Shown here in pieces: positions 947 to 19,581 of a DNA stretch of 25,388 nucleotides (position 1 is the stretch's first letter; the number at the start of each line of letters is the position of its first letter). Origin of the DNA: a virus (lineage: Duplodnaviria; Caudoviricetes). Below the pieces are notes generated by a model, which was given only the letters and a program-made list of their open reading frames with translations, did not search any database and was not told the DNA's origin. Location: the IMG/VR virus record IMGVR_UViG_3300022895_000170, positions 1-25,388 of that record, one strand, 5' to 3'. Both the position numbers and the translations under genes were made by a program.

Positions 947-976
947 AAAAAAATGTCACAAAAAAAGTGACATTTT
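947..976 (-). terminator. Intrinsic terminator after the 975-1616 gene
   Basis: Perfect inverted repeat AAAATGTCAC-N7-GTGACATTTT (950-976) with an A-run on the left, giving a U-tract on the minus strand. Confidence 0.75.
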
Positions 977-1616
977 ATGGGCTTTCAATGGCTGCTAGTG
1001 CTTTATCCATTTGGCGTTCATTATATTTAATTGTATTGCTATTGCTTGATTCGATTCCTCTCAAAACATTATTAGAATTTTGATAAAATCCATAGACAAA
1101 ATCATTAATAGGTGTTTCTTCATCCCCATAATATCTATTAATAACATATGCCTTAAAAATATTGCTTAATAAATAGGTTTCATCTTTTATATCCGCTAAA
1201 TATTTTTTGTTTTTATACTCAGCTATAATGTAATTCTCAAATTCTTTAATTTCAGCCTTTGTCGAAGGATATTTTTTAGCATAAGCTACAATAGTATCGA
1301 ATTTTTCAGTAGGTGTATTGTTAAGACCAGCAATCTCTTTCACTTTATCTTGCCAAGTTACATCGTCTGACGTTTCAATCTTCGCCACAGGCTTTTCTTC
1401 TTGCTTCTCTTTTTTAGGAGTTTCAGCATTATTAAGTCCAAGTTCCCCTACTGCAATGAAACACAAAATAAAAATGACAATTGAGATGCCAGTAAATTTC
1501 AACATTTTTATAGCTTTGATTTTATCCAACTTTATGAAATTAAAAATGGCAAGAAGCAAAAAGATCGCAGCTATGAAACCACTTAGTAGAAATATCCCTA
1601 CTAATATATTAATCAA
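975..1616 (-). CDS. Membrane-anchored hypothetical protein downstream of the repressor (immunity/superinfection-exclusion position)
   Basis: 213 aa. Two N-terminal hydrophobic segments, a K/E-rich linker and a soluble C-terminal domain. RBS GAAAGGGGGT before TTG. Function inferred from position only. Confidence 0.75.
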   Translation of the reverse strand: MINILVGIFLLSGFIAAIFLLLAIFNFIKLDKIKAIKMLKFTGISIVIFILCFIAVGELGLNNAETPKKEKQEEKPVAKIETSDDVTWQDKVKEIAGLNNTPTEKFDTIVAYAKKYPSTKAEIKEFENYIIAEYKNKKYLADIKDETYLLSNIFKAYVINRYYGDEETPINDFVYGFYQNSNNVLRGIESSNSNTIKYNERQMDKALAAIESP

Positions 1617-1742
1617 GTATTTAACCCCCTTTCTTTTGTGTAAATAAACTTAATTTTCTATTTATCCAATATTTTAATGTAATGAATGAAACAACCTGTG
1701 AGTTACACTTGGTTCTATTTTTAATATTTTGTACTTAAACAA

Positions 1743-2375
1743 CTAGAGTGTAACTTTAAAACTGACAGCTTTTCCGATAATTTTAGCAGGATTATTTTCG
1801 TCCACAATATAAGGTTCATGTTTTGGATTATCTGGCATAAGTAAAATGGTTTCACCCTGTTTTTTAACACGTTTTAGTGTTGCTTCAGTATCTCCATTTA
1901 CAAGTACAGCTGCTATTTCACCATATTCGACTTCACTTTGTTCCCTTATCAAAACTTTAGAGCCATTTGGTATAGTCGGCTCCATTGAGTCCCCTTTAGC
2001 AACTAAAGCGAAAATATTCCCAGTTGGTAATAACTCGGAAAATTCATACATATAGCCTTCTACATTTTGTTGAGCTAGAATTGGCTCTCCACAAGCAATT
2101 GTACCTAGGATAGGAATTTTTACGAAATTTGGCTGTACCTCTATTAAATTAGTAGGTTGCTCTTCCGTTAAATCGGAGCGTCTAATATTGAAGTAGTTCG
2201 CCATTAATTGAATTTTATCCGGTCTGGGGTAAGTGCTGGCTTTCATCCAGTTAGAAACAGTTGTTTCAGGAATATTTAAATCTCTTGCCATATCTGTTTG
2301 ATTCAAGCCTCTTTTATCTAATTGCAGTTTTAGGTTTTTTGAGAAAACAATTTTTAGTTTATCTGAGTTTTCCAT
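1743..2375 (-). CDS. CI/LexA-type repressor (XRE HTH + S24 autopeptidase)
   Basis: HTH LNQTDMARDLNIPETTVSNW, cleavage loop IPILGTIACG, catalytic Ser (GDSMEP) and Lys (EATLKR). RBS AAAGGAGGTG favours ATG 2375 over GTG 2387. Confidence 0.93.
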   Translation of the reverse strand: MENSDKLKIVFSKNLKLQLDKRGLNQTDMARDLNIPETTVSNWMKASTYPRPDKIQLMANYFNIRRSDLTEEQPTNLIEVQPNFVKIPILGTIACGEPILAQQNVEGYMYEFSELLPTGNIFALVAKGDSMEPTIPNGSKVLIREQSEVEYGEIAAVLVNGDTEATLKRVKKQGETILLMPDNPKHEPYIVDENNPAKIIGKAVSFKVTL

Positions 2376-2399
2376 ATATTCATGCACCTCCTTTTAATA

Positions 2400-2428
2400 A
2401 TAATACTTATAAAAAGTAGTGATGTAAA
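2400..2428 (-). promoter_or_regulatory. Putative sigma-A promoter for the repressor
   Basis: Minus strand TTTACA (2428-2423)-N17-TATTAT (2405-2400), overlapped by an operator-like site at 2403-2419. Confidence 0.5.
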
Positions 2429-2613
2429 CTATAAAATACCTTTTAAAAGTATTTTATCTTGACTATACCGTTTAAAGGTATTATAGTGTAATTAATTAAA
2501 TATTATATTTAAAGAAAATCTTTAAAAACAAGGGAGGTTATTTTAATGCAAAATAAAAACATACATAAAAAAAGGTATAATATTAAACAAAAAATACCGT
2601 TTAAAGGTATTAT
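2403..2613. promoter_or_regulatory. Array of 17-bp palindromic operators, ATAC-N9-GTAT
   Basis: 2403-2419 ATACTTATAAAAAGTAG; 2436-2452 ATACCTTTTAAAAGTAT (within a longer palindrome 2431-2457); 2465-2481 and 2594-2610 are identical, ATACCGTTTAAAGGTAT (20-bp exact direct repeat). Confidence 0.8.
2459..2487 (+). promoter_or_regulatory. Rightward sigma-A promoter (early/lytic direction)
   Basis: TTGACT (2459-2464)-N17-TATAGT (2482-2487). The 17-bp spacer is exactly one operator. Confidence 0.8.
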
Positions 2614-2629
2614 CTGCAGATGTAAATGA
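2546..2629 (+). CDS. 27-aa basic mini-ORF in the cro position (cro remnant or leader peptide)
   Basis: RBS AAGGGAGG then ATG. Translation MQNKNIHKKRYNIKQKIPFKGIICRCK*. Contains the 2594-2610 operator. Confidence 0.4.
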   Translation: MQNKNIHKKRYNIKQKIPFKGIICRCK

Positions 2630-2798
2630 ATTACTTTCACAAATTTCTAATAGTGCTAAACAAGAATGATTTTCTATTTGGGGTAAATATTCATCTTTAA
2701 AACAATTTTAATCATTTAAAATACATAATATTTTTTATAGTAGGAAATTGATTCAGAAAAGGTATAACAAAAAATAAAAATAAAAGTGGGTGCTATGC

Positions 2799-3200
2799 AT
2801 GTACGATTGGTTACGAGATTATCAGCAAATTCAAGAGGAAATAGCATATTTAGAATATAATCTTGAGAGATCACAGAAAGAATTAAAAAGATGGGTGAAT
2901 GGTGATTTAGTTGGGGTAAGACTTACGGCTGATTCTGATGGTGCAAAACTTGAGGAACGTATTGAACGGATTGATCGGGAGTTGCAAGTTAAGCTCTTGG
3001 AACAAAAAAATATTTTAGAGCTAATTAATAGATTTAGTGGGTTAAATCATAAAATATTAAAATTGAAATATGTAGATGGAATGACATTAGAAGAAATAGC
3101 TGAAATTTTAAACTACAGTGCAAGCTATATTTATAAAAAACATGCGGAGATTGCTAAAATGATAAAGTTTGCTCATGAAATAAAACTTACACATTGTTAA
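2799..3200 (+). CDS. Phage late-gene transcriptional activator (RinA/ArpU-like, sigma70 region-4-like C-terminal HTH)
   Basis: N-terminal coiled coil and C-terminal KILKLKYVDGMTLEEIAEILNYSASYIYKKH. Lies immediately upstream of the structural operon. Probable start ATG 2799 (ORF track 2790). Confidence 0.82.
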   Translation: MYDWLRDYQQIQEEIAYLEYNLERSQKELKRWVNGDLVGVRLTADSDGAKLEERIERIDRELQVKLLEQKNILELINRFSGLNHKILKLKYVDGMTLEEIAEILNYSASYIYKKHAEIAKMIKFAHEIKLTHC

Positions 3201-3311
3201 TAAATTTGCAGAGGCAAGATTCCTGAAATAGGACAGAGGTTCAAACGAAATTTAAGAAAATGTTTATAACTTGTGGTTGGCACATAAATTAATTAGCAAG
3301 CTTCACTCCAG

Positions 3312-3357
3312 AAAAGCGTTAGAAATCAATTTTAAGACATTGATTTCTAGCGCTTTT
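3312..3357. terminator. Long hairpin / bidirectional terminator between activator and late region
   Basis: 19-bp stem AAAAGCGTTAGAAATCAAT / ATTGATTTCTAGCGCTTTT (one G-U pair), 8-nt loop. Confidence 0.7.
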
Positions 3358-3434
3358 AAGGTTTAGACCAGATTTTGTCCCAGCTTCTTCTATTGGAATT
3401 AATGTAGATGTTTTAAATAGATCTTTCTTTTTAT

Positions 3435-3604
3435 TGACACTCAGTAGTATGAATAGAAAGGGTTGGAAATCCGTTATATGATGGTAGTGTAAAAGTTTGA
3501 ACAATAAGTATTTAACTAATAAAATAGCTTTCCTTCCACTGACACTTAGTAGTATGAATAGAAACTCTTGAGATTCCATTATATGATGGTAGTGTAAAGA
3601 TTTG
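3435..3604 (+). repeat. Two 65-bp direct repeats (3435-3499, 3540-3604); putative activator-dependent late promoters
   Basis: 55/65 identical by manual alignment. Conserved blocks TGACACT-y-AGTAGTATGAATAGAAA and TTATATGATGGTAGTGTAAA (contains -10-like TATGAT; no good -35 at 17 bp). Confidence 0.8.
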
Positions 3605-3639
3605 TTGCTGATTAATTATTATATTAAAGTAAGCTTGGA

Positions 3640-3665
3640 ACCACTCAAATTCGAGTGGTCTTTTT
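3640..3665 (+). terminator. Terminator-like hairpin in the late leader
   Basis: ACCACTC-aaattc-GAGTGGT followed by CTTTTT. Confidence 0.6.
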
Positions 3666-3697
3666 ATAGCTCAAAACTTTTGAAGGGAAGTGTGTAG

Positions 3698-4006
3698 ATG
3701 GAGCCAATATATGCAAAGTGCAATAAATCCTGTGGTCATAAATTCTATATACAACATTTTAAAAAAGACAGACTAGACCATGCAATTGAAAAAACCTATT
3801 TTTCTTGTCCAAAATGTGGTCGAGAGTATATATGTTTTTATACTGATGAAAGTACACGTAAACTTTATGCAGAATTAAGAGAATTACATCGGGAAATGAA
3901 GTGGATTGATAGAAATGGGTTAGAGAGGCTGAAGAAGAAGGAATCAACTTTGAAACAAATGATTTCAAACAGTACGGCTGGTGTTAGAAAAATGATCGAA
4001 GGCTAG
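3698..4006 (+). CDS. Small phage protein with putative zinc ribbon and C-terminal coiled coil
   Basis: 102 aa. CNKSC ... CPKC cysteine pairs. RBS GAAGGGAAG. Confidence 0.75.
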   Translation: MEPIYAKCNKSCGHKFYIQHFKKDRLDHAIEKTYFSCPKCGREYICFYTDESTRKLYAELRELHREMKWIDRNGLERLKKKESTLKQMISNSTAGVRKMIEG

Positions 4007-4059
4007 ATGATAAGCACCTTGAAAGGAGGTGAAACAATTGAATAAGCGAGAAAAAATAG

Positions 4060-4103
4060 AAACGTCTACTGATTTCTCATCAGCAGACGTTTTTTGTTTT
4101 TTT
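4060..4103 (+). terminator. Intrinsic terminator-like hairpin upstream of the tail genes
   Basis: AAACGTCTaCTGAT-ttctc-ATCAGcAGACGTTT followed by a long T-tract. Confidence 0.7.
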
Positions 4104-4246
4104 AAAATCACTCACTGTCAGCAAACACTATTGGAATTATTACTTTATTTTAGAAGTGCAATATTTCAAATGCTGAAGGGAGACATTTTCTGAATTTAAT
4201 ATGCTTGTTCGATACTTTATCTCATACACGAAGATAGGAGAAAAAT

Positions 4247-4591
4247 ATGATAGATCTAATGAATCATATACCTACTATTTTAGAGCCATTAGGTCTGCCC
4301 GTTATTTTTAATGGATTTCCTACAGGTTCAACAAAACCAAACCAGTTTATCACTTTTTTAGAAATAAGTGCGAAGCCAGTTTTTGAAGCTGGCGGTATTG
4401 AAGTTGAAACAGAGCGGCTTATACAAATGAATGTATGGTCTAATTCGAATTTTCATCAGATTGTAGAAAGCATTAAACAATTGATGGGAAATGCAGGCTT
4501 TGAACGTACTCTAGAATATGATGAACCTTATACAGCTAGCGAAACTTACTATAACAGGGTATTACAATTCGCTTTCTTTGATGAAAAATAA
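4247..4591 (+). CDS. Tail terminator/completion protein (SPP1 gp17 / lambda gpU-like)
   Basis: 114 aa, directly upstream of the major tail gene. Pattern FITF...IQMNVWS...IKQLM..AGF.R...YYNRVLQF. Confidence 0.75.
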   Translation: MIDLMNHIPTILEPLGLPVIFNGFPTGSTKPNQFITFLEISAKPVFEAGGIEVETERLIQMNVWSNSNFHQIVESIKQLMGNAGFERTLEYDEPYTASETYYNRVLQFAFFDEK

Positions 4592-4614
4592 TAAACAATT
4601 AGGAGGTCATGTAA

Positions 4615-5190
4615 ATGACAACAGTAAATGAAAAACCACAAAAAATTAGCTTAAAACGTATTCACTATGCACTAATGACAAATGAGCAGACAGAGACATG
4701 GGGTGAAGTGAAAACTTTAACGATGCCTATTTCCTTGACACTTACACCAAACTTTTCAGAAGCACATTTAGATGCAGGTGATCGAGTAGTAGATCAGGAA
4801 GCGCAGTTGGATTCAATTACTATTGCAGGAGAAACAGCTGATTTACCAACTGATGTGCTAGTAGATTGGTATGGACATAAAAAATCTGCAGAGGGTGGTA
4901 TTATTACAAATGCAAATGATACACCTAACTCGATTGCAATTGGCTTTGAATCAGGATCTAAGCTGGTTTGGCTATTAAAAGCAAAATTAAAACCAGGTGA
5001 AGAAACAAATACAACTCGTAAAAAAGGTGAAACAAGTTACAAAGTATATCCATTTGGTGGTGAGGCATTACCATTGATTGATGGTGTTATTAAACATACA
5101 GTAGATACACGAGATGTAGGGGTAACAGTAACAGCAGAAACATTCTTTAAATCTGTTGCAAAACCAAATGAAACAGTAGAAACACCATAA
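4615..5190 (+). CDS. Major tail tube protein (siphophage, phi13-like)
   Basis: 191 aa. ISLKRIHYALM, LPTDVLVDWYG, IAIGFES, VWLLKAKL motifs. RBS AGGAGG. Confidence 0.88.
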   Translation: MTTVNEKPQKISLKRIHYALMTNEQTETWGEVKTLTMPISLTLTPNFSEAHLDAGDRVVDQEAQLDSITIAGETADLPTDVLVDWYGHKKSAEGGIITNANDTPNSIAIGFESGSKLVWLLKAKLKPGEETNTTRKKGETSYKVYPFGGEALPLIDGVIKHTVDTRDVGVTVTAETFFKSVAKPNETVETP

Positions 5191-5196
5191 TTAGAG

Positions 5197-5227
5197 AGAA
5201 GCCCTTTAAAGGGTTTCTTCTTTTTTT
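5197..5227 (+). terminator. Terminator after the major tail gene
   Basis: AGAAGCCCTT/AAGGGTTTCT stem followed by TCTTTTTTT. Confidence 0.7.
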
Positions 5228-5312
5228 GTTGCAGGTAATCAACATTGAGGGTTGAGCAAATAAAATTTGGCAAATGGTTTAAAAAAAGGCTACTGAAAAG
5301 GATGGATGAGAT

Positions 5313-5636
5313 ATGCAAATAACATTAAAGATAGATGGACAAGAGAAAATATTTTCAAATGATTTTGTAAAAGCACGAGTTTTCCGTAATGCTTTAAAAA
5401 TGAACGAAAAAATGCGTAAAGAAGGCAATGAAATTTCAGTTGAAACATTTGATGAAATGATTTCCTTTGTTGTTCACGTATTTGATAATCAATTCACAAT
5501 TGATGATGTATGGGATGGCCTAGAAGCTGGAAAATTGCAGGAAGAAATTATGCGCGTGTTCAATAATGTGCTGAATATTGGTGGGCTTGAAACTAAACCT
5601 GTCCAGAATAATGATGAGGGAAAGTTAGTGGTATAA
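5313..5636 (+). CDS. Tail assembly chaperone (gpG-like)
   Basis: 107 aa between major tail and tape measure genes. FVVHVFDNQFTIDDVWDGL motif. Slippery site near the 3' end. Confidence 0.85.
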   Translation: MQITLKIDGQEKIFSNDFVKARVFRNALKMNEKMRKEGNEISVETFDEMISFVVHVFDNQFTIDDVWDGLEAGKLQEEIMRVFNNVLNIGGLETKPVQNNDEGKLVV

Positions 5637-5794
5637 CGCCTTACCAACAAATTAAAGCATTTTATCGAGAATTAATAAAAGAGGGTTACAAATTACATGA
5701 AGTTGACGAAATGGATATTCATTTTTGGTTTGAACTTACAGGTGATTTCGATGAAATATATGAGGTTACAGCCGATGAAATTTCATGGTTGTGA
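5313..5794 (+). CDS. Tail assembly chaperone long form (gpGT-like) via -1 programmed frameshift, ~160 aa
   Basis: G GGA AAG at 5618-5624 in the correct phase. The -1 frame stays open to TGA 5792-5794: VSGITPYQQIKAFYRELIKEGYKLHEVDEMDIHFWFELTGDFDEIYEVTADEISWL. Confidence 0.85.
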
Positions 5795-5816
5795 TAGACA
5801 AAGGCGGTGATAGGGA

Positions 5817-8800
5817 ATGACGGAAATTGGTCCAGTTGAGCTAAGACTAAATACTTCTAATTTTGATGGATCCATTGAACAATCTATACGACATTTGACT
5901 GCAATGGGTGCAGAATTACAGGCTATACAAGCACTTGGCAATGAATATGAAAATTCCATAGAGGGCTTATCACAAAAGCATGATGTACTTACAAGATCAG
6001 TTGAGGCGTCAAGATTTAAATTGGGTGAGCAACGTAAAAAATATGATGAATTGCTTGCCTCCGGAACAGCAAATACAGAAGCTCTTGAACAACAAGCAAT
6101 TGCAGTTAATGAAGCTGTTGCTGAATATAATCGTTTAAGCACACAATTGACGGACGTTGATAATCAATTAGGTGCACAAACATCAAAATGGAACAAATTT
6201 CAGGAGTTTGGTGGAAAAGTGAAATCTGTTGGAGAAAGCATATCCACAGTTACAGCTCCTATAAAAGATTTTGGTGCTTATGCCCTAAATGCAGCAATCG
6301 ATTTTGAAAGTGCTTTTACTGGGGTTCGTCAAACAGTAAATACTAGTGAGGAAAATTTTAAAAAGCTTGAAGATGGTATAAGAGGTATGGCTAAAGAGCT
6401 TCCAGTTAGTGCTACAGAAATTGCGGGAGTTGTTGAATCAGCTAGCCAATTAGGAATTGCTGAAGAACATCTTTTATCTTTTTCCCGTACAGTAATCGAT
6501 ATGGGAAACTCTACAAGTATGACTCGAGAGCAGGCAGCAAAGGAATTTGCTGATTTTGCTAACATTGTGGGTATGGGACAAGGTGATTTTGATCGACTAG
6601 GCTCTTCAATTACTGAGCTTAGTAGCACTATGGGAATTGCAGCCTCTGACATCATGTCAATGGGAAAGGGATTTGCGGAGCAAGCTTCAAAAATTGGTTT
6701 AACAGAAGCGCAAATTATGGGGTTAGCTGCTACAATGTCCAGTCTAGGTATTGATGCTGAAACTGGAGGAGCAGCAATGTCTTCGGTTTTCCAAAAAATT
6801 CAGAAAGCAGTGGGTGATGGTGGAGAAAGTTTATCTGGATTTGCGAAGGCTGCTAACATGTCTAGTGCAGATTTTAAAAAAGCCTTTGAAACAGATGCAG
6901 CCTCTGCGTTAGATGCATTAGTGAAGGGATTAGCTGAAACATCAGAGGGAGGTGCTAATCTAAAAAGCGTGCTTGCAGATTTAGGTGTAAGTGGAAACGA
7001 AACGGATGTACTTTTGAGCATGGCGGGTGCCTCTGATTTACTTACATCAGCTGTTAATTCATCTTCAGCTGCCTGGAAGGAAAACACAGCTTTATCAGAT
7101 AAAGCAGCTGAGCGTTATCAAACTACAGAATCTCAAATAGCAATCATGAAAAACCAGCTTGTAGATGTTGGGATAAGCATAGGAAAAGTGTTAATTCCCA
7201 TAGTTCAAAAAGTACTTGATATCTTTATACCATGGATAGAAAAGTTTAGTAACCTATCCTCTGCAACACAAAATACAATTGTCATTATTGGAGGATTAAT
7301 TGCTGCTATTGGTCCTTTATTAGTTGTTGGAGGAACATTAATTTCAAGCATTGGGTCAATCGTTACAGCAATTGGTGGATTTTCAATGGCAATAGGTGCA
7401 GCAGGGGGAGCAACAACTGCTTTAGGAGCAGCATTAGCATTATTATCTGGGCCTGTAGTTATAGCAGCTACTACATTAGCTGGTATTGGGATAGCAGCAT
7501 ACGCAGTAGGTCGTGATCTTAATGAATCCTCTATCCAGATTGAGGATTGGAAAACTAAAGTTTCTGAATCTACCGCAGAATCTGTTGGAAGCTTTTTGGA
7601 ATTATCCGATCAAGCAACAGTGGCACTTAATCAGTTGTCATGGTCTGGTCAAGCAGTGACAGAAGAAATGGCAGCTAATATGGTATCCATCTATAACGAG
7701 ATGGGTGATCAAGTGCTAGCGGAAATGCAATCTGATCATGCTCAAGAATTAGAAGCAATGCAAAATCACTTTGCTTCAAGCAGTGCCTTAACCGAAGAAC
7801 AAGAAGCGAGTATTCTAGAACGTGTTGCTCAAAGTCAGAATGAACAACAGCAAGTAATTACAGATGGCAAGGCAAGAATTGCAGAAATTTATCAAAGTGC
7901 AGCTGAAAACAATAGAAGCATCACAGAGATTGAGCAACAAGAAATCGACATTATTCAACAGACGATGAAAGAAAATGCTATAAAGCATCTTTCTGATAGT
8001 GAAGTTGAGCAAAAGATTATTTTAGAAAGTCTAAAAAATGAAGCATCAAAGATTTCGGCAGAACAAGCTGCTCAAGTTGTACAAAATTCGTTGGAGCAAA
8101 AAGAGGGTGTAATAAAAGATGCTGAGGATCAATACAACGAAATATATAAATGGGCAATAAGACAACGGGATGAAACAGGGGCAATGTCTGCGGAAGAGGC
8201 ACAAGCTGTTATTGACGAGGCTAAACGTAAACGTGATGAAATAGTTAAAAATGCTGAAGATATGCACCAAAAGGTTGTTAATGAGGCACAAGTACAAGCT
8301 GAAGAACATGTTAATATGGTGGACTGGGAAACTGGAGAAATAAAATCAAAATGGAGTGTTTTTTACCAAAATATTGTGAGCAAAGCTAAAGAAATTGGGA
8401 CATCTATTGGGAATACTTGGAGTAACTTGTTGTCTGCTACAAAAAATAGATTCAGTGAAATTAAAGAATCAGCAGCAGAAAAATTTAGTGCTTTGTCTAC
8501 ATCTATAGAAAGAATCATAAACAACCTTCCAACTATTTTTCAAAAAGCTTTCAAAGGAATTCTTTTATTTTTATCAAATTTTAGTTTGGTGAAAATAGGA
8601 GCCGAGATTGTTAATGGACTAATAAAAGGAATAGGTAACAAACTTAAAGAACTTCGATTAATCTTTGATACGATAGGAAATCTTATTCCAAATTGGTTAA
8701 AGAAAAAATTAGGTATTAAATCTCCTTCACGTGTTATGCAGGCTCTAGGTGTAAATATTGGAGAAGGTTTAGCAATTGGAATTGAACAAGGCTGTGAGGG

Positions 8801-10511
8801 AGTTAGTAAAGCCGCTGAAAAATTAGCTGATGCCGCAATACCTAACATCGCACAGCAATTAACAATTTCTGCAGAAGCTATGGAAAAAGGACAACAAATC
8901 ATTAGTGGTGTTACAAAAGTTAATGCTGCTGAAATAGAAGCTTTAAATTCAGAGGCTGAGAATAAACGAATTGAAATTTCGCAACAGGCCGCAGAAAAAA
9001 TTACTACAATCAAAAACAATGCAGCAAAAAAACAGGTAGCACTTACAGCTGATCAAATAGCTCAAATCAAAAAAATTGAAGAGCAGGCATTGAAGGATAA
9101 AGAAACGGTTACAAAGCAATACGCTGAAAAGATAGAAAAAATTGAATCTAATTCTGCAAATGTAAAATTCAATGCTTTAAAAGAATATGTCGAAGCCCAA
9201 AAATCAGCTGGAGAAATGACAGCTAAACAAGAAGCAGAATTTTGGCGATACAGTGCTTCATTATTTAAAGATGGTACAAAAGAAAAGACAAACGCACTAA
9301 AAGAGTTTAAAAAAGCCTACTCTGAAATGGCGAAAGATCAATTCGAGAAAGAAAAAGAATATATTGAGAAACGTAAAAAATACAATTCGATATCTCTTGC
9401 TGAAGAATTGAAAATTTATGAGGGGTATTTATCTCAATATGAAGCAGGAACAGATGAACGTATTTATTATGAAGACAAATTTTATAATACGAAAAAAGAA
9501 ATAAGCGAAAAAATTAAAACAATCAATAATGATTATTTGAAGCAGACGCAGGATGTTAACAAGAAATTATTGGATGAAGAGCAAAAGCATAATGATGCTT
9601 ATAAGAATGCTTTAGAAAGCCGAATAAAAAGTATCAAAGGTTACTTCGGATTATTTGATGAAGTAAAAATTGCTGATCCTGTAGACTCTTCTAAATTGAC
9701 GCAGGATTTAAGTGAGCAGGTGAATAGCTTATCCCAATGGAGAATTGAGTTATCAAAACTAGAATATCGCAGATTATCTAGTGATATTATAGATGAACTT
9801 GAAGCAATGGGCCCAAGTGTCCTTGCACAGCTAGAAGCTTTAAATCGAATGACTGATGCGGAACTGATGCAATATCAAGAGTTATATGAGAAAAAGCTAT
9901 TAATTGCACGTGAAGCGGCAATAAAGGAGCTAGAACCATTACAACAAGAAACAAAGGCTAAAATCGAGGACCTACGACAAACAGCAAATTCAGAATTGGC
10001 AACATTAAATAGTGAATGGCAAGCAAAAATAAAAGAAGTCGTTCTTGGAACAGAAGAAACTTTAGGATCAATGAATGAAATTGGGAAGAATGCAATTCAA
10101 GGTTTAATCGATGGTATGACGGGAATGCAATCAACTTTACAGGAATCTGTAAATAATATTATCAAAGGTGTTTCACAGACCCTAGAAAAAGTACTTAATT
10201 TCAATCCCGCATCTCCAATAGTTCAGGCTGCTGGTGGAAGTTTTGCTAGTGGATTTGATTCAATTATGAAAAAGGCTACAAATATTAGTAAACTATTGGA
10301 AAATAGCAATTTGCATGAACCCTCTTCATTATCGCCAAAACAAAAACTCAAAAATAACACTGCTTCTCAAAATTCATCGCCTTCTACCATTATTCTACAA
10401 TCTGTATTAGATGGCCAAATTATTGGTGAATCGGTAGTAGATGTCGTAAGTGGTAGACAATATAATAATGCAAGCATCCATGCATTAACAAGGGGGTTGA
10501 GTGGTATATGA
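5817..10511 (+). CDS. Tail tape measure protein
   Basis: 1564 aa. TP901-type core (AAIDFESAFTGVRQTV...ELPVSATEIAGV), hydrophobic Gly/Ala stretch, LGIKSPSRVM motif, extensive coiled coil. Confidence 0.95.
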   Translation: MTEIGPVELRLNTSNFDGSIEQSIRHLTAMGAELQAIQALGNEYENSIEGLSQKHDVLTRSVEASRFKLGEQRKKYDELLASGTANTEALEQQAIAVNEAVAEYNRLSTQLTDVDNQLGAQTSKWNKFQEFGGKVKSVGESISTVTAPIKDFGAYALNAAIDFESAFTGVRQTVNTSEENFKKLEDGIRGMAKELPVSATEIAGVVESASQLGIAEEHLLSFSRTVIDMGNSTSMTREQAAKEFADFANIVGMGQGDFDRLGSSITELSSTMGIAASDIMSMGKGFAEQASKIGLTEAQIMGLAATMSSLGIDAETGGAAMSSVFQKIQKAVGDGGESLSGFAKAANMSSADFKKAFETDAASALDALVKGLAETSEGGANLKSVLADLGVSGNETDVLLSMAGASDLLTSAVNSSSAAWKENTALSDKAAERYQTTESQIAIMKNQLVDVGISIGKVLIPIVQKVLDIFIPWIEKFSNLSSATQNTIVIIGGLIAAIGPLLVVGGTLISSIGSIVTAIGGFSMAIGAAGGATTALGAALALLSGPVVIAATTLAGIGIAAYAVGRDLNESSIQIEDWKTKVSESTAESVGSFLELSDQATVALNQLSWSGQAVTEEMAANMVSIYNEMGDQVLAEMQSDHAQELEAMQNHFASSSALTEEQEASILERVAQSQNEQQQVITDGKARIAEIYQSAAENNRSITEIEQQEIDIIQQTMKENAIKHLSDSEVEQKIILESLKNEASKISAEQAAQVVQNSLEQKEGVIKDAEDQYNEIYKWAIRQRDETGAMSAEEAQAVIDEAKRKRDEIVKNAEDMHQKVVNEAQVQAEEHVNMVDWETGEIKSKWSVFYQNIVSKAKEIGTSIGNTWSNLLSATKNRFSEIKESAAEKFSALSTSIERIINNLPTIFQKAFKGILLFLSNFSLVKIGAEIVNGLIKGIGNKLKELRLIFDTIGNLIPNWLKKKLGIKSPSRVMQALGVNIGEGLAIGIEQGCEGVSKAAEKLADAAIPNIAQQLTISAEAMEKGQQIISGVTKVNAAEIEALNSEAENKRIEISQQAAEKITTIKNNAAKKQVALTADQIAQIKKIEEQALKDKETVTKQYAEKIEKIESNSANVKFNALKEYVEAQKSAGEMTAKQEAEFWRYSASLFKDGTKEKTNALKEFKKAYSEMAKDQFEKEKEYIEKRKKYNSISLAEELKIYEGYLSQYEAGTDERIYYEDKFYNTKKEISEKIKTINNDYLKQTQDVNKKLLDEEQKHNDAYKNALESRIKSIKGYFGLFDEVKIADPVDSSKLTQDLSEQVNSLSQWRIELSKLEYRRLSSDIIDELEAMGPSVLAQLEALNRMTDAELMQYQELYEKKLLIAREAAIKELEPLQQETKAKIEDLRQTANSELATLNSEWQAKIKEVVLGTEETLGSMNEIGKNAIQGLIDGMTGMQSTLQESVNNIIKGVSQTLEKVLNFNPASPIVQAAGGSFASGFDSIMKKATNISKLLENSNLHEPSSLSPKQKLKNNTASQNSSPSTIILQSVLDGQIIGESVVDVVSGRQYNNASIHALTRGLSGI

Positions 10512-11320
10512 AAATGATTTTAAAGAATGGTCGCGAATTGTTAATAAGTGACTACAGTTTAAAATTATTAAAATATTACATCCCTTCTGTTTCAATTGAG
10601 CACCAATCGACTGAGGTTGATGGCAGAGATGGCCCAATTTTCACAAGCACACGTTTTAGTGGAAGAACAATTACTGCGAAATTTATGTATAAAGCATTTG
10701 ATTACCATGATTATAAATTGTTTATTGCAGATATCAATATGCTGTTTTCTCGCAAGGAATATTTTTATATTATTTTCGCTACAGAACCAGGAAAGAGATG
10801 GAAGGTCAGATTAGCAAATAGCTACCAACCAAATGAGCTACTTCGGAAAGTAGGGGAGCTAGAAATACAATTTATTTGTGAAAATATATATGCAGAATCT
10901 GTTCCAACGACTTTAGATTTAAAGGAATGGGATATTGATAAGTGGGCGTGGGGGATGGGTCTTGATTGGGATGAGGATTTAGCTTACTCATTTAACAGTA
11001 ATCTTTTCACGATTAAAAATTATGGCAATGTTGCTGTGGATCCACGCAGAAATGACTTAGAAATAACCCTAAAAGGAGTTTTTAATAATAGTGTAACTAT
11101 TACAAATCACACAACAGGAGAAGTATATCAATTAAATGATTCTTTATCATCCTCTGATGAATTAAAAATTAGTGGTATTCAATCTTTTAAAAATGGTATT
11201 TCTGTTTTTAAAAATACAAATAAAAAACTCCTTTCACTAGCGGTTGGTGTTAATAATTTTTCAGTTTCAGGCGGTACTGTTCACAGTATCGTTTTTAATT
11301 TTAGATTTTTATATATGTAA
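10508..11320 (+). CDS. Distal tail protein (Dit, siphophage tail family)
   Basis: 270 aa, ATGA-coupled to the tape measure gene. EVDGRDG, EPGKRWKV, IKNYGNVAVDP, LAVGVNNF, FRFLY motifs. Confidence 0.88.
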   Translation: MKMILKNGRELLISDYSLKLLKYYIPSVSIEHQSTEVDGRDGPIFTSTRFSGRTITAKFMYKAFDYHDYKLFIADINMLFSRKEYFYIIFATEPGKRWKVRLANSYQPNELLRKVGELEIQFICENIYAESVPTTLDLKEWDIDKWAWGMGLDWDEDLAYSFNSNLFTIKNYGNVAVDPRRNDLEITLKGVFNNSVTITNHTTGEVYQLNDSLSSSDELKISGIQSFKNGISVFKNTNKKLLSLAVGVNNFSVSGGTVHSIVFNFRFLYM

Positions 11321-11342
11321 ATAAGGATGGTGAAGAAAAACC

Positions 11343-14273: not shown

Positions 14274-14295
14274 ATAAAAAAGGGGGTATAGCTTT

Positions 14296-14607
14296 GTGAA
14301 TTATATATTAGGAAGTCGTGTTATCTTTGATTCAGTAACTGGACGTATAATACATCAAATAGGGGAGGTATTGGAAAGAACCAGTTAAACATGAAGATAT
14401 TAATGGGGTAGACTATATAGATTTAGAAGTAAATACTTATGATATGTATACTCATTATATAGAGCGTATAGATGTAGAGAAACATCAGCCTATCTGAAGA
14501 AATTCGATTGAGTTGTAAACGAACCGACAATTGACGAAAAGATTAGTAAATTAGAGCAAGATTTAGAGTTGCTTAAAGCTGATAAAGAGGTGGGAGAGAC
14601 TTTATGA
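14296..14607 (+). pseudogene. Disrupted small tail-fibre-associated (assembly) gene
   Basis: RBS AAAAGGGGGT + GTG. Three broken fragments: MNYILGSRVIFDSVTGRIIHQIGEV..* / KHEDINGVDYIDLEVNTYDMYTHYIERIDVEKHQPI* / EPTIDEKISKLEQDLELLKADKEVGETL*. Confidence 0.65.
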
Positions 14608-14740
14608 TGGATAATGATAATCAAATCGTTGTAAGATTGCAGCAAAACGTATTATTTCAAAAATCTTATGTTATTGATGACATCACTAATTAGGATTACA
14701 GACAAGCAATAGAGGATTACATTTTTATAACTATGTGTAA
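14604..14740 (+). pseudogene. Disrupted small gene following the fibre-associated gene (XkdX-position)
   Basis: ATGA overlap and RBS GAGGTGGGAG. Reads MMDNDNQIVVR..., then KSYVIDDITN*DYRQAIEDYI with an in-frame TAG at 14691-14693. The end coordinate is approximate. Confidence 0.5.
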
Positions 14741-14759
14741 TCGTTCCATATTGTTCAGT

Positions 14760-14794
14760 AAACACTACTTATAATAAAGTAGTGTTTTATTCTT
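14760..14794 (+). terminator. Inverted repeat / terminator before the tailspike gene
   Basis: AAACACTACTT-ataata-AAGTAGTGTTT, perfect 11-bp stem, followed by TATTCTT. Confidence 0.6.
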
Positions 14795-14811
14795 ATTAAG
14801 AAGGTGATTTT

Positions 14812-16302
14812 GTGTATAAAGGTAATCAAATTAGTTATGACAATCTAAATGAGAAGCTCAAGAAAAAAATATCCAAAGCTGATTTTGAAATTGTTAATGA
14901 TTTAACTACAGGTGGTATAGAAAAGGTCTTGTCAGCTGAACAAGGAAAAAAATTAGCTATTAAGTTTAATGAGCATGTGGATGATTTTATATCAGTAAGT
15001 AGGTTTGGATTCTTTAAGGATTCAACAACAATTCAAAATGCGTTAAATTACGCTGAAAGTATTGGAGGTGCAGTTGTAGTAGCGCCAAGCGGTAATTATA
15101 ATATTTTAGATATTATAAAAATCCCATCAAATGTAAAATTGTTAGCAGAGGGAAATGTAGTATTTAAGCGTATGGCAGAGATAAGTGCTATTTTACACAA
15201 TGATTCTGACGGTATCATAGGTGGATATGATGCAAATAAAAATATCACTGTAAAAGGAATTACCTTCGATGCTAACAACATAGAATATACATCTAATGTA
15301 ACATCACTAGCTTTTGGGCATTGTACAGGCATTCGAGTTGAAAATTGTGAGTTTTTAAATTGCACTACATGGCATGACCTAGAACTTAATGGTTCTAAAA
15401 ATGTTGTTGTTGATAATTGTCGTTTTCTTAATTATAAAGGTACTTCAGAAATGTTACAGCTTGACTATGCGGGTTCAAGTGGTCAATTCCCTTGGTTTGC
15501 ACCTTTTGATGACACATCTTGTATGAACATTGAGATAACTGGATGTACTTTTATGGGAGCAGGTATAAATGACAATGTTGTGCCGTTCAATGACAAGATT
15601 AAAGCAATAGGTAATCACTCTTTCAAGCAGTCAGTAACTTCAAAAAATGTCTTAATTTCAAAATGTCATTTCGAAGGATTCTTATATGCTATATATTTAC
15701 AAGATGTAGAAAATTTAAAAGTTGAAAAGTGTGTTTTTAGGGATAATAACACTGGTGTTGTTTGGGAACAAAAATTAAATAATTCAAAGGATTGGACTAT
15801 TACAGATTGTTCTTTCACACACAGAGATAGTATTTTAACTTATATTGGCGTAGGTGGAGAATCAAGATTTTTATTAGGAATCACTAATGAGCCTACTTTA
15901 TTCTTAGAAGGCGTTCTCATAAGTGGAAACAAAGTACATGCTAATTGCACCAACATCATTGGTGGAACATTCAATAATGTAAAAATAGTGAACAACACTT
16001 TTGAGATGGCTAGACGTAATGGAATATACATTTACGGTGGCGATAACATTATTATAGAAAACAACTTCTTAACTAATAATGCTAGAAATGGTGAAGCAGA
16101 TCGAGCAGATATTGTAGCTGGGAATAATCCTACTATTAAATCTAAAAATGTTATAGTTAGCAATAATATATTTGACAAAATCATCTCTGTAAATACAAAT
16201 GAAAATGTTATTGCTACGAACAATATTATCAAAAATTTTTTGCAATTTGCTGGTGGAGCACAAGCTAAAAATAATATGATTGCAGGAGTTTGGACACCTT
16301 AG
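14812..16302 (+). CDS. Right-handed parallel beta-helix protein (pectate-lyase-like tailspike / polysaccharide depolymerase)
   Basis: 496 aa. DSTTIQNALN...GGAVVVAPSGNY...IKIPSNVKLLAEG cap motif, repeated N(I/V)x(I/V)xNCxF rungs, N-terminal fibre repeat IVNDLTTGGIEKVLSAEQGK. RBS AAGAAGGTGA. Confidence 0.85.
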   Translation: MYKGNQISYDNLNEKLKKKISKADFEIVNDLTTGGIEKVLSAEQGKKLAIKFNEHVDDFISVSRFGFFKDSTTIQNALNYAESIGGAVVVAPSGNYNILDIIKIPSNVKLLAEGNVVFKRMAEISAILHNDSDGIIGGYDANKNITVKGITFDANNIEYTSNVTSLAFGHCTGIRVENCEFLNCTTWHDLELNGSKNVVVDNCRFLNYKGTSEMLQLDYAGSSGQFPWFAPFDDTSCMNIEITGCTFMGAGINDNVVPFNDKIKAIGNHSFKQSVTSKNVLISKCHFEGFLYAIYLQDVENLKVEKCVFRDNNTGVVWEQKLNNSKDWTITDCSFTHRDSILTYIGVGGESRFLLGITNEPTLFLEGVLISGNKVHANCTNIIGGTFNNVKIVNNTFEMARRNGIYIYGGDNIIIENNFLTNNARNGEADRADIVAGNNPTIKSKNVIVSNNIFDKIISVNTNENVIATNNIIKNFLQFAGGAQAKNNMIAGVWTP

Positions 16303-16355
16303 TAAATAGCTTCTATAATATTTGGGATAAATTTATACAAAAGAAGGTGATATTG

Positions 16356-18188
16356 TTGCTCATTGTTACAAATGATACACAAGTCGAGCCAATACTAGAA
16401 ACAAATTACGAAAAATTTGAAGAGTTGAATGGGGCATTGCGGATCTCATTTAGCTCTTTTTTACATGAAAGCAATCCAGGACATACCTTGCTAGATTTTG
16501 AAGCTATAATCGAAGATGAAGATGGTCATGAGTATGTTGTGAAAGAATTTAGTGGTGATACCTTTACCAAAAAAGCTACGGCGGTGCATATCTATTTTTC
16601 ATTAGTGGATGATTTTAAGTATGAAATCCATGGTGGAACAAGGACGTTTAATGATTTTATGTCATTTGTTCTTGATGGAACCGGTTGGACTTTTATTAAT
16701 GCAGATGTAGATGGTTATCAATTACTACCGAATTTTGGAGAAGCGAATCCAATTGTTTTAATCGAACAATTGTGTACAGCATTTAACTGTGAACGTCAAT
16801 TATTACCTGGAAAAGTTATTCGTTTTTCTAAGAAAATTGGTAGAGATAATGACATACAATTTCGTTACCGTCATAATATTGAAACCTTATCATATAGCAT
16901 CAATACTACAAATTTAAAGACACAAATTCGCGGATATGGTTCAGAGGGGATTGATGTTACTTATACTTCACCTTTAGCTAAGTCACCAAGAATTGGTATA
17001 CGTATTGCAGATCCTATTCATGACGAGAATATAGAATCTATTGAGGAAATGGCAACCCGTTTGGCAAGTGAATTACCTGCAGCACCTGAAACAAATATTA
17101 AGGTTAAAGTGACTTCAATAGATGGTGATGTGGGAGATATGGTTTGGCTTATACATGAGGAGCTTAACTTAGAATATCAAACACGTATTTTAAGTAAAAA
17201 GACTAAACGGGATTATAGTAATTCAGAGATTGAAGTTGGAAATACACAAGCCAAAAGTATTGTAGATGCCTTATTAAATCAACGTGCTACTATTAATGCT
17301 AACGATAAACGCTATCGTTCAAAATTTGAACAAACTAATGATCGAATTGATTTAGAGGTTGAAGAAATAGGTGCATCAATTGCTGCAATTAATATTCGCG
17401 CTGATAGTATCACTCAAAGCGTAACAGATATAAGTAACAATTTAAGTAGTCGTATTACTCAAACAGCTATTGAAATTCGAGGTGAAGTATCTGCACAGGT
17501 TACAACACTGAACAACAATATTCAAACAGTTCGCAATGATGTTTCTGTTGTTTCTCAAACAGCATCTCAAATACAGTCAACGGTGACTAGTCAACAAACT
17601 CAAATAAGCAGTCTTGGGAATAGGGTATATAATGCCGAAAGTAGTATTACACAACAAGCAAATCAAATTCAGTCAAAAGTAAGTGTAACGGATTTTACAG
17701 GAAATACAATTACGTCTTTAATCAATCAAACTGCAACGACGATTGGTATACAAGCATCAAAAATCAATCTTGTAGGGGCTGTTACTGTTCTATCTGATAT
17801 TACTGGGAATTTAGGAACAATTTATACAGGAACATTAAACAGCGTAAATATTTACTCTGCAGATATAAATATCTCTAATGATGTTACGATAGGTAAAGTT
17901 TTAAAAATAGGTTCTCACTGGAGTGACTCCGAGCCTAAGGCAATTGTATTTGGTGGAAATTTAGGAGCATCTGCAATTAGACATGATGGAGATCAGCTTC
18001 ATTTAAGTGCCTTACATGGAGTTAATATTGCAGCAGACTTATTTGTTAGTGGTAATTATGGAAATATAGCAAAAGCTGATACAAATGGCTTAGGTTTTGG
18101 CTTATCTACTGCAACTAATCCTAAAAGGCTTTATGTTAGACTTTTTGGAATAAATCAAGGTTATTTAGAACTAATAAAAGGAGATTGA
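16356..18188 (+). CDS. Tal-like baseplate hub / tail tip protein with coiled-coil extension
   Basis: Prophage tail-endopeptidase-like N-terminus (VLDGTGWTF, NFGEAN, QFRYRHNI, TQIRGYG, YTSPLA, GDMVWLIHE) and C-terminal S.I.Q.A..I...VS repeats. RBS AAGAAGGTGA favours TTG 16356 (or 16353) over 16290. Confidence 0.85.
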   Translation: MLIVTNDTQVEPILETNYEKFEELNGALRISFSSFLHESNPGHTLLDFEAIIEDEDGHEYVVKEFSGDTFTKKATAVHIYFSLVDDFKYEIHGGTRTFNDFMSFVLDGTGWTFINADVDGYQLLPNFGEANPIVLIEQLCTAFNCERQLLPGKVIRFSKKIGRDNDIQFRYRHNIETLSYSINTTNLKTQIRGYGSEGIDVTYTSPLAKSPRIGIRIADPIHDENIESIEEMATRLASELPAAPETNIKVKVTSIDGDVGDMVWLIHEELNLEYQTRILSKKTKRDYSNSEIEVGNTQAKSIVDALLNQRATINANDKRYRSKFEQTNDRIDLEVEEIGASIAAINIRADSITQSVTDISNNLSSRITQTAIEIRGEVSAQVTTLNNNIQTVRNDVSVVSQTASQIQSTVTSQQTQISSLGNRVYNAESSITQQANQIQSKVSVTDFTGNTITSLINQTATTIGIQASKINLVGAVTVLSDITGNLGTIYTGTLNSVNIYSADINISNDVTIGKVLKIGSHWSDSEPKAIVFGGNLGASAIRHDGDQLHLSALHGVNIAADLFVSGNYGNIAKADTNGLGFGLSTATNPKRLYVRLFGINQGYLELIKGD

Positions 18189-18193
18189 TATTA

Positions 18194-18388
18194 ATGGATT
18201 ATCAAGTACTATTAAACAACGGACAAACAATTAATTTAAAAAATGCAGAGTTTGATGCAACAGCTTTTACAGCAACACTAAATGATCAAAAAATTACTTT
18301 TGTTAATATTGGAGGAGCGATTATTAATAAGCATATTATTGTAAGTGTGTTACCAATGACAGCCGTACAAACAGAAACGCAGTCCTAG
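18194..18388 (+). CDS. Small hypothetical phage protein after Tal
   Basis: RBS AAAGGAG, ATG 18194, 64 aa. Confidence 0.7.
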   Translation: MDYQVLLNNGQTINLKNAEFDATAFTATLNDQKITFVNIGGAIINKHIIVSVLPMTAVQTETQS

Positions 18389-18414
18389 GACGAGCGTTAT
18401 TTTTATTTAATAGG

Positions 18415-18454
18415 AAAGCCTTCCAGCGTTTTTCGCTTAGGAGGGCTTTTTCTT
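18415..18454 (+). terminator. Terminator-like hairpin before the lysis cassette
   Basis: AAAGCCTTCC...GGAGGGCTTT with inner AGCG/CGCT, followed by TTCTT. Confidence 0.65.
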
Positions 18455-18479
18455 ATGATCTACAAAAGGAAGTGATGTA

Positions 18480-18884
18480 TTGGATAAATGGATAGCAACA
18501 TGGAGTGGTTTTATGGGTACACTTATTTCTTATTCAGTAAATGGTTTAGGTATGGCCGTAACAGTTTTAATTGGATTTATGACAATTGATTATATCACTG
18601 GCATTTTATCTAGCATTGTTAATCATAATTTAAATAGTCGTATTGGTGTAAATGGTATTATACGAAAAATTTATTATTTGATGTTGGTGGGTTCAATTTA
18701 TTTATTAGCTTTTGTGATACCAGGTATTGAATATGCTGGCGATGGAGCGGCAATAGCATTTTGTGTTTTAGAATTTATCTCAATAACAGAAAATGGTACA
18801 AAGATGGGGCTACCTACACCAAATTTTATAAAGAATATATTAGCAATTGTCAAAGATAAAACTGATGAGGAGGATAAAAAATGA
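18480..18884 (+). CDS. Holin (phage_holin_4 / TcdE-like family)
   Basis: IDYITGI...LNSRIG..GIIRK...EFISITENGTKMGLPTP signature. Three hydrophobic segments and a charged C-terminus. Confidence 0.92.
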   Translation: MDKWIATWSGFMGTLISYSVNGLGMAVTVLIGFMTIDYITGILSSIVNHNLNSRIGVNGIIRKIYYLMLVGSIYLLAFVIPGIEYAGDGAAIAFCVLEFISITENGTKMGLPTPNFIKNILAIVKDKTDEEDKK

Positions 18885-19552
18885 GTATAAATATAACGTC
18901 AACATGCCGAGATTTAGCACAATTAATGCCAGTCGCACAATTAGCATGCCGACTTCTATTTCAAGAATGCTACAAGTCAGGCATTGATAATATTTTTATC
19001 ACAGAAACGTTCCGCTCACAGGAACGACAAAATTATTTATTTGCTCAAGGGCGAACTAGGCCAGGAAACATTGTCACTTGGACACTTTCCAGCAACCATA
19101 GCAGTCGTTTAGCATGGGATATTGCGGTTGGTGCCCCACTATCTTTATACGATGTGACTACTCTCAATAAAGTTGGTGTTATTGCTCGCAAGCTTGGCAT
19201 AACGTGGGGTGGTGATTGGACGGGGAGCATTGATCGACCCCATTTTGAAGTTAAAGCATCTTGGAAAATGCCTATAGGCTATCTATTAGAAGGACAAGTA
19301 AATGTTCCTAGTAGTAGTAAAATGAAAGTTAAATTAATGATAGATGAGAAGAAGGAGGCAAATAAGATGACACAAGCATGGAATCCTGCATCACCAACAA
19401 TGCGCAATGAAACAGAGAATTATATAGCACAAGCTATTAAAGAAGGAATTATTCAAGAATCACATTTAAAAGATTTGCAAAACGGGATGATGACAACAGA
19501 CCGCTTGTTAGGGCTTTATATTACAATCCAGCAGCGACGAGCGAATGAATGA
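18881..19552 (+). CDS. Endolysin, M15 family L-Ala-D-Glu peptidase with C-terminal helical domain
   Basis: ETFRSQERQ..L.AQGRT.PG.IVT, SxHxxxxAxD (SNHSSRLAWD), WGGDW, DRPHFE. Confidence 0.92.
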   Translation: MSINITSTCRDLAQLMPVAQLACRLLFQECYKSGIDNIFITETFRSQERQNYLFAQGRTRPGNIVTWTLSSNHSSRLAWDIAVGAPLSLYDVTTLNKVGVIARKLGITWGGDWTGSIDRPHFEVKASWKMPIGYLLEGQVNVPSSSKMKVKLMIDEKKEANKMTQAWNPASPTMRNETENYIAQAIKEGIIQESHLKDLQNGMMTTDRLLGLYITIQQRRANE

Positions 19553-19557
19553 TAAAG

Positions 19558-19581
19558 ACACCGCCTAAATGGTGGCGGTGT
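19558..19581 (+). terminator. GC-rich hairpin at the end of the lysis cassette
   Basis: ACACCGCC-N8-GGCGGTGT directly after the endolysin stop; weak U-tract. Confidence 0.55.

Follow-up and report, generated by a model that had tools for sequence, protein, structure and literature searches.

A headless phage-tail cluster kept at one chromosomal site in Lysinibacillus and predicted to work as an F-type tailocin

The DNA considered here, a 25,388-base virus-collection record taken whole (IMGVR_UViG_3300022895_000170; ‘the window’), carries at positions 1743-19552 a 17.8-kb headless cluster of non-contractile tail genes, together with regulators and lysis genes. Comparative sequence analysis favours, at a probability of roughly 0.7, the reading that this element is the headless descendant of a temperate siphovirus, with a predicted role as an F-type tailocin, one whose origin was most likely independent of that of the Listeria monocin. 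The comparisons, which were made via related loci from public genomes (the completeness of the window record is rated at about one third), indicate that the cluster is genuine, regulated, old and inherited in place.

Scanning of the 24 open reading frames (ORFs) of the window against Pfam, PHROG and NCBIfam recovered every gene that a first-pass annotation of this DNA had named. There is a complete siphovirus-type tail set (terminator, tube, the chaperones G and GT, tape measure, Dit, Tal, fibre and spike), and what appears to be the element's own stress-type switch and release cassette, i.e. S24 repressor, operators, activator, holin and endolysin. No sheath family was found among these ORFs with the three collections, nor, with Pfam and PHROG, any integrase, replication, terminase, portal, scaffold, capsid or adaptor gene; the absence of head, packaging, replication, integration and sheath genes, also claimed earlier, is to that extent borne out. 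The terminase, portal, capsid and connectors that stand beside the tail genes of an intact siphovirus prophage are missing from the window, and head, packaging, replication and integration genes are missing from the other headless loci too. As positive control, the same scans recovered genes of these four kinds in 12 full-prophage loci. The host genes earlier placed on both flanks are indeed there, 3HCDH (3-hydroxyacyl-CoA dehydrogenase) on one side and a ZIP-family transporter and then ADH on the other. With respect to the limits and spacing of the element some revision is needed. Its start had been put at 975, which takes in the ORF at 975-1616 (orf213); as orf213 occurs at the empty sites of non-carriers, between 3HCDH and an SLH-domain gene (e.g. 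G026, G042, G036, G035, G037 and G038), it is a host gene and the element begins at 1743. A gap of about 0.5 kb in the earlier annotation, 14273-14812, contains a broken fibre-chaperone-like gene. Ribosome-binding sites had been credited to all the named genes; Shine-Dalgarno-like sequences do precede most element genes, and the start of Tal is most likely near 16353, not 16290.

That the locus is not strain-specific is seen from its distribution. In an initial scan with Dit as query and one genome per species, nine Lysinibacillus loci were found, six of them headless with the window's gene order and the same host flanks, and three of them ordinary prophages (Dit 43-53% identical) with terminase, portal, protease, capsid and connectors directly upstream of the tail genes. 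A survey of 49 Lysinibacillus genomes, again one per species but with the major tail protein as query, gave a tube protein at least 84% identical in 13 genomes, at 14 places. Ten of the places are headless (G018, G001, G002, G029, G030, G005, G013, G004, G015 and G003:C5, the G030 contig ending past Dit), all at the 3HCDH-ZIP site with 3HCDH and/or ZIP flanking, and their tube proteins are 89-100% identical. L. xylanilyticus DSM 23493 and L. sphaericus OT4b.31 are among the carriers. The other four places (G017, G034, G032 and G003:C7) are complete prophages at other sites. A family sample of 301 genomes added six more with a tube protein 64-81% identical, five of which were fetched and are all complete prophages, the sixth being left out on account of a very short contig. 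Nine relatives away from 3HCDH-ZIP (tube 64-90% identical) are accordingly all complete prophages with heads: headless copies are always at 3HCDH-ZIP and copies elsewhere always have head genes. The synteny across related genomes that the first-pass annotation had proposed as a check is therefore seen in 10 of 49 species, and two of the outcomes it had listed as refuting, a strain-specific locus and a full prophage at this site in close relatives, are ruled against, since ten species have it, all headless, and complete prophages lie elsewhere in the chromosome.

Occupancy of the site can be followed in non-carriers also, ZIP being present in 46 of the 49 genomes and 3HCDH being 87-98% identical in carriers and non-carriers at the same site. 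The 36 ZIP-bearing non-carriers were classified as 25 with an empty site, four with a scar and seven assigned to neither. At empty sites ZIP and 3HCDH are 0.2-8.8 kb apart, usually with the SLH-domain gene and often with orf213 in between. The scars consist of a C-terminal repressor fragment fused to most of an endolysin (G024), shorter repressor and endolysin fragments (G046), half an endolysin (G049), and an activator fragment with one repeat unit of about 105 nt (G031). The SLH-domain gene (343-354 aa, cell-wall-anchored) has ZIP on one side, its other neighbour being the endolysin gene in the other carriers (L002, L003, L006, L007, L040 and L084 were compared) and orf213 at empty sites; it is missing from the window (19552-19883) and from G018.

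How the head was lost is suggested by what lies between the first late gene and the tail terminator. The full prophages (G003:C7, G017:C52, G034:C2, G032:C62, G115, G062, G195, G120 and G156) have the same GGGAAAG and T extension as the headless loci and related distal-tail modules, and the phrog_1315 late leader is present in two of the nine (L045 and L087), those whose fetched stretch reaches that far. They differ in their chromosomal places, in being without the 105-nt repeat units, and in having HNH, TerS, TerL, portal, protease, capsid, Ad1, Hc1 and Neck1 before the terminator. In the full-phage order a phrog_1315 homologue stands directly upstream of HNH-TerS-TerL and the rest of that series then leads to the terminator; the headless order is simply phrog_1315, orf54, terminator. 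Over their first ~27 residues orf54 and its homologues align with the prohead-protease N-terminus in four full-phage relatives (tblastn E 1.7e-5 to 1e-3, values from a small search space, with the match recurring over several query-subject pairs), and orf54 is on this ground a fossil marking the deletion junction. It has homologues in nine of the 11 headless loci (the ten carriers and the window) and none in L005 or L040, a distribution that points to a single ancestral head loss. The parent line seems to be known only from prophages, the best match of the tube protein in 50,697 phage records being only 32% identical. (Within orf54, at 4060-4092, there is also a minus-strand hairpin with a 14-bp stem followed by a T-run.)

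Ratios of nonsynonymous to synonymous divergence (dN/dS; Nei-Gojobori medians, computed from the ten headless loci for which data are complete and listed in Table 1) are 0.036-0.194 for 12 element genes at a median dS of 0.7-1.6, the ratios being rough as dS is near saturation, and frames of up to 1679 codons are still open across this divergence. On these values the element genes are under purifying selection, and the neutral evolution of tail genes that had been named as a further refuting outcome is ruled against. For each of the ten element genes tested, identity between pairs of loci correlates with that of ZIP (Spearman 0.41-0.88), and element and ZIP agree in their groupings: the window with G018, G001 with G002, and G013 with G004 and G005, with G003 most distant. 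As the pairs are non-independent and element and ZIP are linked, the agreement fits vertical descent but does not prove it.

A number of observations nevertheless weigh against a working tailocin, and several of them are what would be expected of a cryptic prophage remnant without a selected function of its own, its tail genes being either undecayed so far or refreshed by phage recombination. Loss has been repeated: of the 49 genomes, four have a scar and 25 an empty site, and G026 and G042, the genomes closest to the window by ZIP, are both empty. Barring sequencing errors, structural or assembly genes have a lesion in three of the 11 loci: the fibre-chaperone-like gene of the window's own copy is broken, the Tal frame of G002 shifts near codon 58 (L003 12782-12955; a true lesion or a sequencing error), and the tape measure is in two ORFs in the metagenome-assembled genome G030. 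With its chaperone broken the window's fibre may not fold, and the window's own copy may be impaired. The early regulators are eroding. Loci of the window's type have lost a cro-like gene and a neighbour of about 140 aa, which are in part broken elsewhere, L005-L007 having at the position of the window's remnant a cro-like ORF of 85-122 aa (HTH_3 in L005 and L006; broken in L007) and the ~140-aa gene. In two carriers the stretch that separates the activator from the late operon contains a mobile element: in G013 a reverse transcriptase of group II intron type (L039 16489-17754), in G029 the remnant of a transposase together with additional repeat units (L038 17682-18939). Either could leave the late genes no longer governed by the switch. 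Intact prophages with tube proteins 84-90% identical circulate in the genus, cassette exchange with them is evident, and the purifying signal could thus be partly imported by recombination. The model of the tube protein is also mediocre (pLDDT 67.6); its Foldseek matches are weak and mostly to siphovirus tail tubes, the best at E 2.3e-3 and none at E 1e-3 or better. Against a mere remnant is that a neutral frame of 4.7 kb would be expected to close by a dS near 1 and yet is open in nine complete loci, that dN/dS is 0.04-0.19 in every gene, near the value of the flanking host gene, that no locus has lost the slip site or the T extension, and that the genes which are not exchanged (repressor, activator, terminator, holin and lysin) co-diverge with the host flank. 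A remnant is, on balance, unlikely.

The features of the putative switch fit a response to stress. The repressor has a partial match to TIGR00498 lexA and the motifs A-C-G-E-P, G-D-S-M and L-K-R, and is predicted to be SOS-inducible. As to operators, which the first-pass annotation had reported, a 17-bp palindrome, ATACCGTTTAAAGGTAT, exactly occupies the spacer of the rightward promoter TTGACT-17-TATAGT, and further operator-like copies are present at 2403, 2436 and 2594. TTGACT with the palindrome directly after it is present in all nine loci aligned; seven have it unaltered, and L005 and L040 differ at one or two positions. The activator gene is found in ten of ten headless loci, and the hairpin downstream of it is likely a terminator. 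Between activator and first late gene every headless locus has the ~105-nt unit, in two to eight copies depending on the species (L002-L007, L037-L040), and it was found in no full-phage relative; its predicted role is that of a late promoter or a target of the activator. Two other readings of the repeats were discarded, that of a structured RNA, since folding was no better than that of shuffled sequences (z -0.17), and that of a minus-strand gene, since the ORF at 3319-3579 consists of the repeat units themselves.

Downstream of the tube gene, just past which is a terminator-like hairpin (5196-5219), the signal for programmed frameshifting that had been claimed earlier is readily recognized. 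The heptamer G GGA AAG at 5618-5624 is in register with the G frame and would allow synthesis of GT by a -1 slip; the -1 frame is open for 58 codons to 5794, 23 bases short of the tape-measure start. GGGAAAG and a T extension of 56-61 aa are kept in 15 of 15 loci examined. The tape measure ranges from 1116 to 1679 aa across carriers. In the monocin a tape measure of 622 aa goes with 22 rings, each of 4 nm (figures in the part of PMC11830787 drawn on here); scaled accordingly, the predicted tube length is about 220 nm in the window and about 160-240 nm across carriers.

At the recognition end of the tail there has been turnover. Along the locus the DNA of the window and that of G018 (L037) are 97-99% identical except in three blocks: 7364-8715, the middle of the tape measure, whose exchange changes the protein from 1564 to 1635 aa in L037; 13030-14659, the C-terminus of the fibre with the chaperone; and 14984-16305, the body of the spike, only the first ~59 residues of which are common to the two. 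Relatives of the fibre C-terminus, 39-61% identical, are elsewhere in genus genomes, off the 3HCDH-ZIP site. An identical fibre cassette with an intact chaperone was found neither in the virus collection nor in the genus genomes, where identity reaches at most 39-61%; intact homologues of the chaperone-like gene itself, of 87-112 aa, are present in L037, L005, L006, L007 and L044. G013 and G015 have an alternative distal-tail module that resembles that of the full prophage G003:C7, making two modules among carriers. For the spike, a role in receptor binding, with binding or cleavage of a glycan, is predicted.

If the parts work together, DNA damage would activate RecA and the S24 repressor would cleave itself, thereby freeing the operator-occluded rightward promoter for synthesis of the sigma-like activator, which in turn would switch on late promoters borne by the repeat units. 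Terminator, tube, G and GT, tape measure, Dit, fibre, spike and Tal would then yield a capped flexible tail with a tube of ~220 nm, and holin and endolysin would lyse the producer cell. The freed tails would engage, via fibre and spike, a surface glycan or S-layer-associated receptor of related strains and, with the membrane opened through Tal and tape measure, would kill without injection of DNA.

A terminator is, in a phage, the docking part for the finished head, and its retention raises the alternative of a tail-supply module: the tails would join DNA-filled heads whose genes belong to a resident prophage or to a capsid-forming satellite, and the product would be a transducing or infective particle, not a bacteriocin. 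Tails joined to heads encoded elsewhere had been another of the outcomes listed as refuting. A phrog_9-type terminase is encoded elsewhere in seven of ten carriers, six of the seven having a PF05065 capsid match elsewhere as well (G002 has none), and in G003 the headless locus coexists with a related full prophage. The whole genome of G015, in contrast, has no match to phrog_9, PF03354, PF03237, PF04466 or PF05065, i.e. to four terminase families and the HK97-type capsid family, and that of G001 has none to phrog_9, PF03354 or PF05065, though another terminase type is present elsewhere in it. The locus has also lost the neck genes Ad1, Hc1 and Neck1. Headless terminators are, moreover, less like phage ones than phage ones are like one another. 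With tube identity held equal (80-93%; 10 headless and 9 full-phage loci), headless and phage terminators are 48-62% identical (median 56%) as against 57-89% (median 67%) between phages, which is a hint, nothing more, that the constraint on the terminator changed after head loss. Tail supply is, given all this, improbable. Also conceivable, and very improbable, is that in addition to killing the tails are a standing supply that docks on foreign tail-less capsids, the locus being a host-owned regulator of gene transfer; if so, swapped fibre and spike cassettes would redirect whose DNA enters which strain.

A quite different possibility is that switch or lysis cassette is the selected function and the tails are passengers, with SOS-triggered release of DNA or matrix, or control by the repressor of other prophages, as the benefit. 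Repressor, activator and holin are among the genes with the lowest dN/dS (0.036-0.060), and, in the part of PMC6872733 consulted, a second phage is under the control of the monocin switch in Listeria (compare MpaR, below). Constraint is, however, equally strong on the tube protein (0.053) and on chaperone G (0.049), switch and lysin have been lost along with the tails in scars, and the turnover of recognition cassettes suggests selection on targeting. Little credence is given to a switch or lysis function alone, and the tailocin remains the reading that is carried forward here.

A tailocin with which comparison is instructive, and to which the first-pass annotation had likened the locus, is the monocin, encoded by the ftb cluster of Listeria monocytogenes (PDB 9j1k). 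The likeness holds as an analogy of plan and not as kinship in sequence. As laid out in the portion of PMC11830787 used here, that cluster has the same succession of regulators, terminator, tube, two chaperones, tape measure, Dit, hub, fibres and holin-lysin, is likewise without head genes, and is a proven killer. In what was available of PMC6872733 it is at a fixed chromosomal site and vertically inherited, the fixed site being common to both systems. In a search of sequence against all solved structures, Dit has as its best solved relative the monocin FtbK (9j1k_K, E 3.5e-32), and Tal matches Listeria gp18 (PDB 3gs9, E 3e-20) and the monocin FtbL (E 2.2e-13); the Dit and Tal families are also common in Gram-positive siphoviruses. 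Against the monocin chains the tube protein gave no match at E up to 1, either with phmmer or with a 10-sequence profile, the terminator gave none at E up to 1 and the fibre gave no sequence match; monocin chains are also absent from the Foldseek matches listed for the tube model. Since only Dit and Tal match, independent domestication is favoured over relationship to the monocin. The switches differ too: the monocin has a CI-like repressor cleaved by the MpaR metalloprotease (PMC6872733, same portion), but the Lysinibacillus repressor has its own S24 domain and is paired with a sigma-like activator, and there is no metalloprotease gene in the locus. Further differences are the position of fibre and spike genes between Dit and Tal, the tape measure of 1116-1679 aa in place of 622 aa, from which tails about twice as long or more are predicted, and the presence of the locus in about a fifth of the species of the genus.

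Efagins of Enterococcus faecalis are likewise chromosomal, non-contractile and phage-derived, and arose independently of the monocin, according to the part seen of a recent preprint (bioRxiv 10.64898/2025.12.13.693970). In that part their specificity comes from a swappable targeting domain, in one case phage-derived, to which the cassette swapping described above is comparable, and they are present, intact, in every E. faecalis strain and in no other species, unlike the Lysinibacillus locus, which is patchy across a genus and has left scars of loss. This comparison is by description. F-type pyocins are of lambda-like tail descent, belong to a Gram-negative host and are regulated by PrtN/PrtR. 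Those of Pseudomonas aeruginosa are also headless flexible-tail bacteriocins with regulators and a lysis cassette (partly from the section of PMC11830787 used). In the full-text literature, most subscription journals being outside its coverage, no description of a phage-tail-like bacteriocin of Lysinibacillus was found.

F-type tailocins of Gram-positive bacteria are already known but few, namely monocin and the recently reported efagins, and the mechanism by which non-contractile tails kill is still open in the parts drawn on of PMC11830787 and of the efagin preprint (bioRxiv 10.64898/2025.12.13.693970). If the present reading is correct, the Lysinibacillus lineage would be a third independently domesticated Gram-positive case, and one with an unusually clear natural history, in that phage relatives, a head-deletion fossil, copies in ten species, loss scars and cassette swaps can all be inspected. 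The tape measures constitute a natural length series, which makes testable the question raised by efagins of why the tail is long if it is mainly the baseplate that kills. As there are mosquito-larvicide strains in Lysinibacillus (PMC11245835), a strain-specific killing particle could, if real, affect competition among them.

Table 1. Features of the window (positions in the 25,388-base record), with the matches that identify them and median dN/dS where available
Feature	Position	Strand	Match or remark	dN/dS
3HCDH, host flank	1..762	-	PF02737 E 1.8e-48; truncated by the window's left end	
orf213, host, predicted membrane-anchored protein	975..1616	-	Present at empty sites, outside the element	
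Repressor, XRE-type HTH with LexA-like S24 self-cleaving peptidase	1743..2387	-	PF00717 E 5.7e-29, PF01381, phrog_4 E 7e-44	0.036
Divergent promoters and operators	2400..2613	.	Rightward TTGACT-17-TATAGT 2459-2487; leftward promoter 2428-2400	
cro-like HTH gene remnant, 27 codons	2546..2629	+	Start and C-terminal ‘PFKG’ end only, spanning the distal operator	
Late activator, sigma-70 region-4-like, 136 aa	2790..3200	+	PF08281, PF04545, phrog_36 E 6.6e-26	0.052
Hairpin, 19-nt arms, 95% complementary	3312..3357	.	Downstream of the activator gene	
Two direct repeat units, 105-nt spacing	3416..3604	+	Each with a weak -35 and a TATGAT -10-like site	
First late gene, Cys-rich 102-aa protein	3698..4006	+	phrog_1315 E 5e-24	0.158
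orf54, fossil at head-deletion junction	4029..4193	+	N-terminal ~27 codons match prohead protease	0.45
Tail terminator	4247..4591	+	phrog_78 E 2e-15	0.149
Major tail (tube) protein, phi13 type	4615..5190	+	phrog_88 E 7e-27, TIGR01603	0.053
Tail chaperone G and GT	G 5313-5636, T extension to 5794	+	PF23857 E 6.6e-28	0.049 (G)
Tape measure protein, 1564 aa	5817..10511	+	phrog_1272 E 8e-159, PF10145	0.194
Dit, distal tail protein	10508..11320	+	PF05709, phrog_33 E 6.5e-52	0.086
Fibre, 976 aa	11343..14273	+	phrog_819 and tail-fibre PHROGs; conserved N-terminal part, cassette-swapped C-terminal part	
Fibre-chaperone-like gene, broken	14296..14607	+	phrog_1626 type, three reading-frame pieces	
Right-handed beta-helix tailspike	14812..16302	+	PF13229 E 2e-13, phrog_2234 E 6e-52	
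Tal, baseplate hub	16290..18188	+	PF06605 E 5.9e-31, phrog_326 E 1.7e-77	0.113
orf67, small conserved gene	18185..18388	+	phrog_12586; present in 8 headless loci	0.093
Holin	18480..18884	+	PF05105 E 2.6e-28	0.060
Endolysin, M15 peptidase; right end of the element	18881..19552	+	PF13539, phrog_6523 E 3.6e-71	0.096
ZIP-family metal transporter, host flank	19883..20599	-	PF02535; ADH beyond ZIP	0.079

No tRNA was found in the window, and the sole Rfam match, ctRNA_p42d at 18413-18458, was taken as chance, scoring 27 bits against a gathering score of 50. Beyond the right flank a free-standing NUMOD4/HNH homing-endonuclease-like gene of 189 aa (21985-22554, minus strand) is present between the ADH and Na/Pi-cotransporter genes, with an 86%-identical copy near the locus in G002 (L003, 20539-20808). 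At the right end of the record, 24551-25299, are orfA and orfB of an IS3-family transposase, the window stopping within the IS element.

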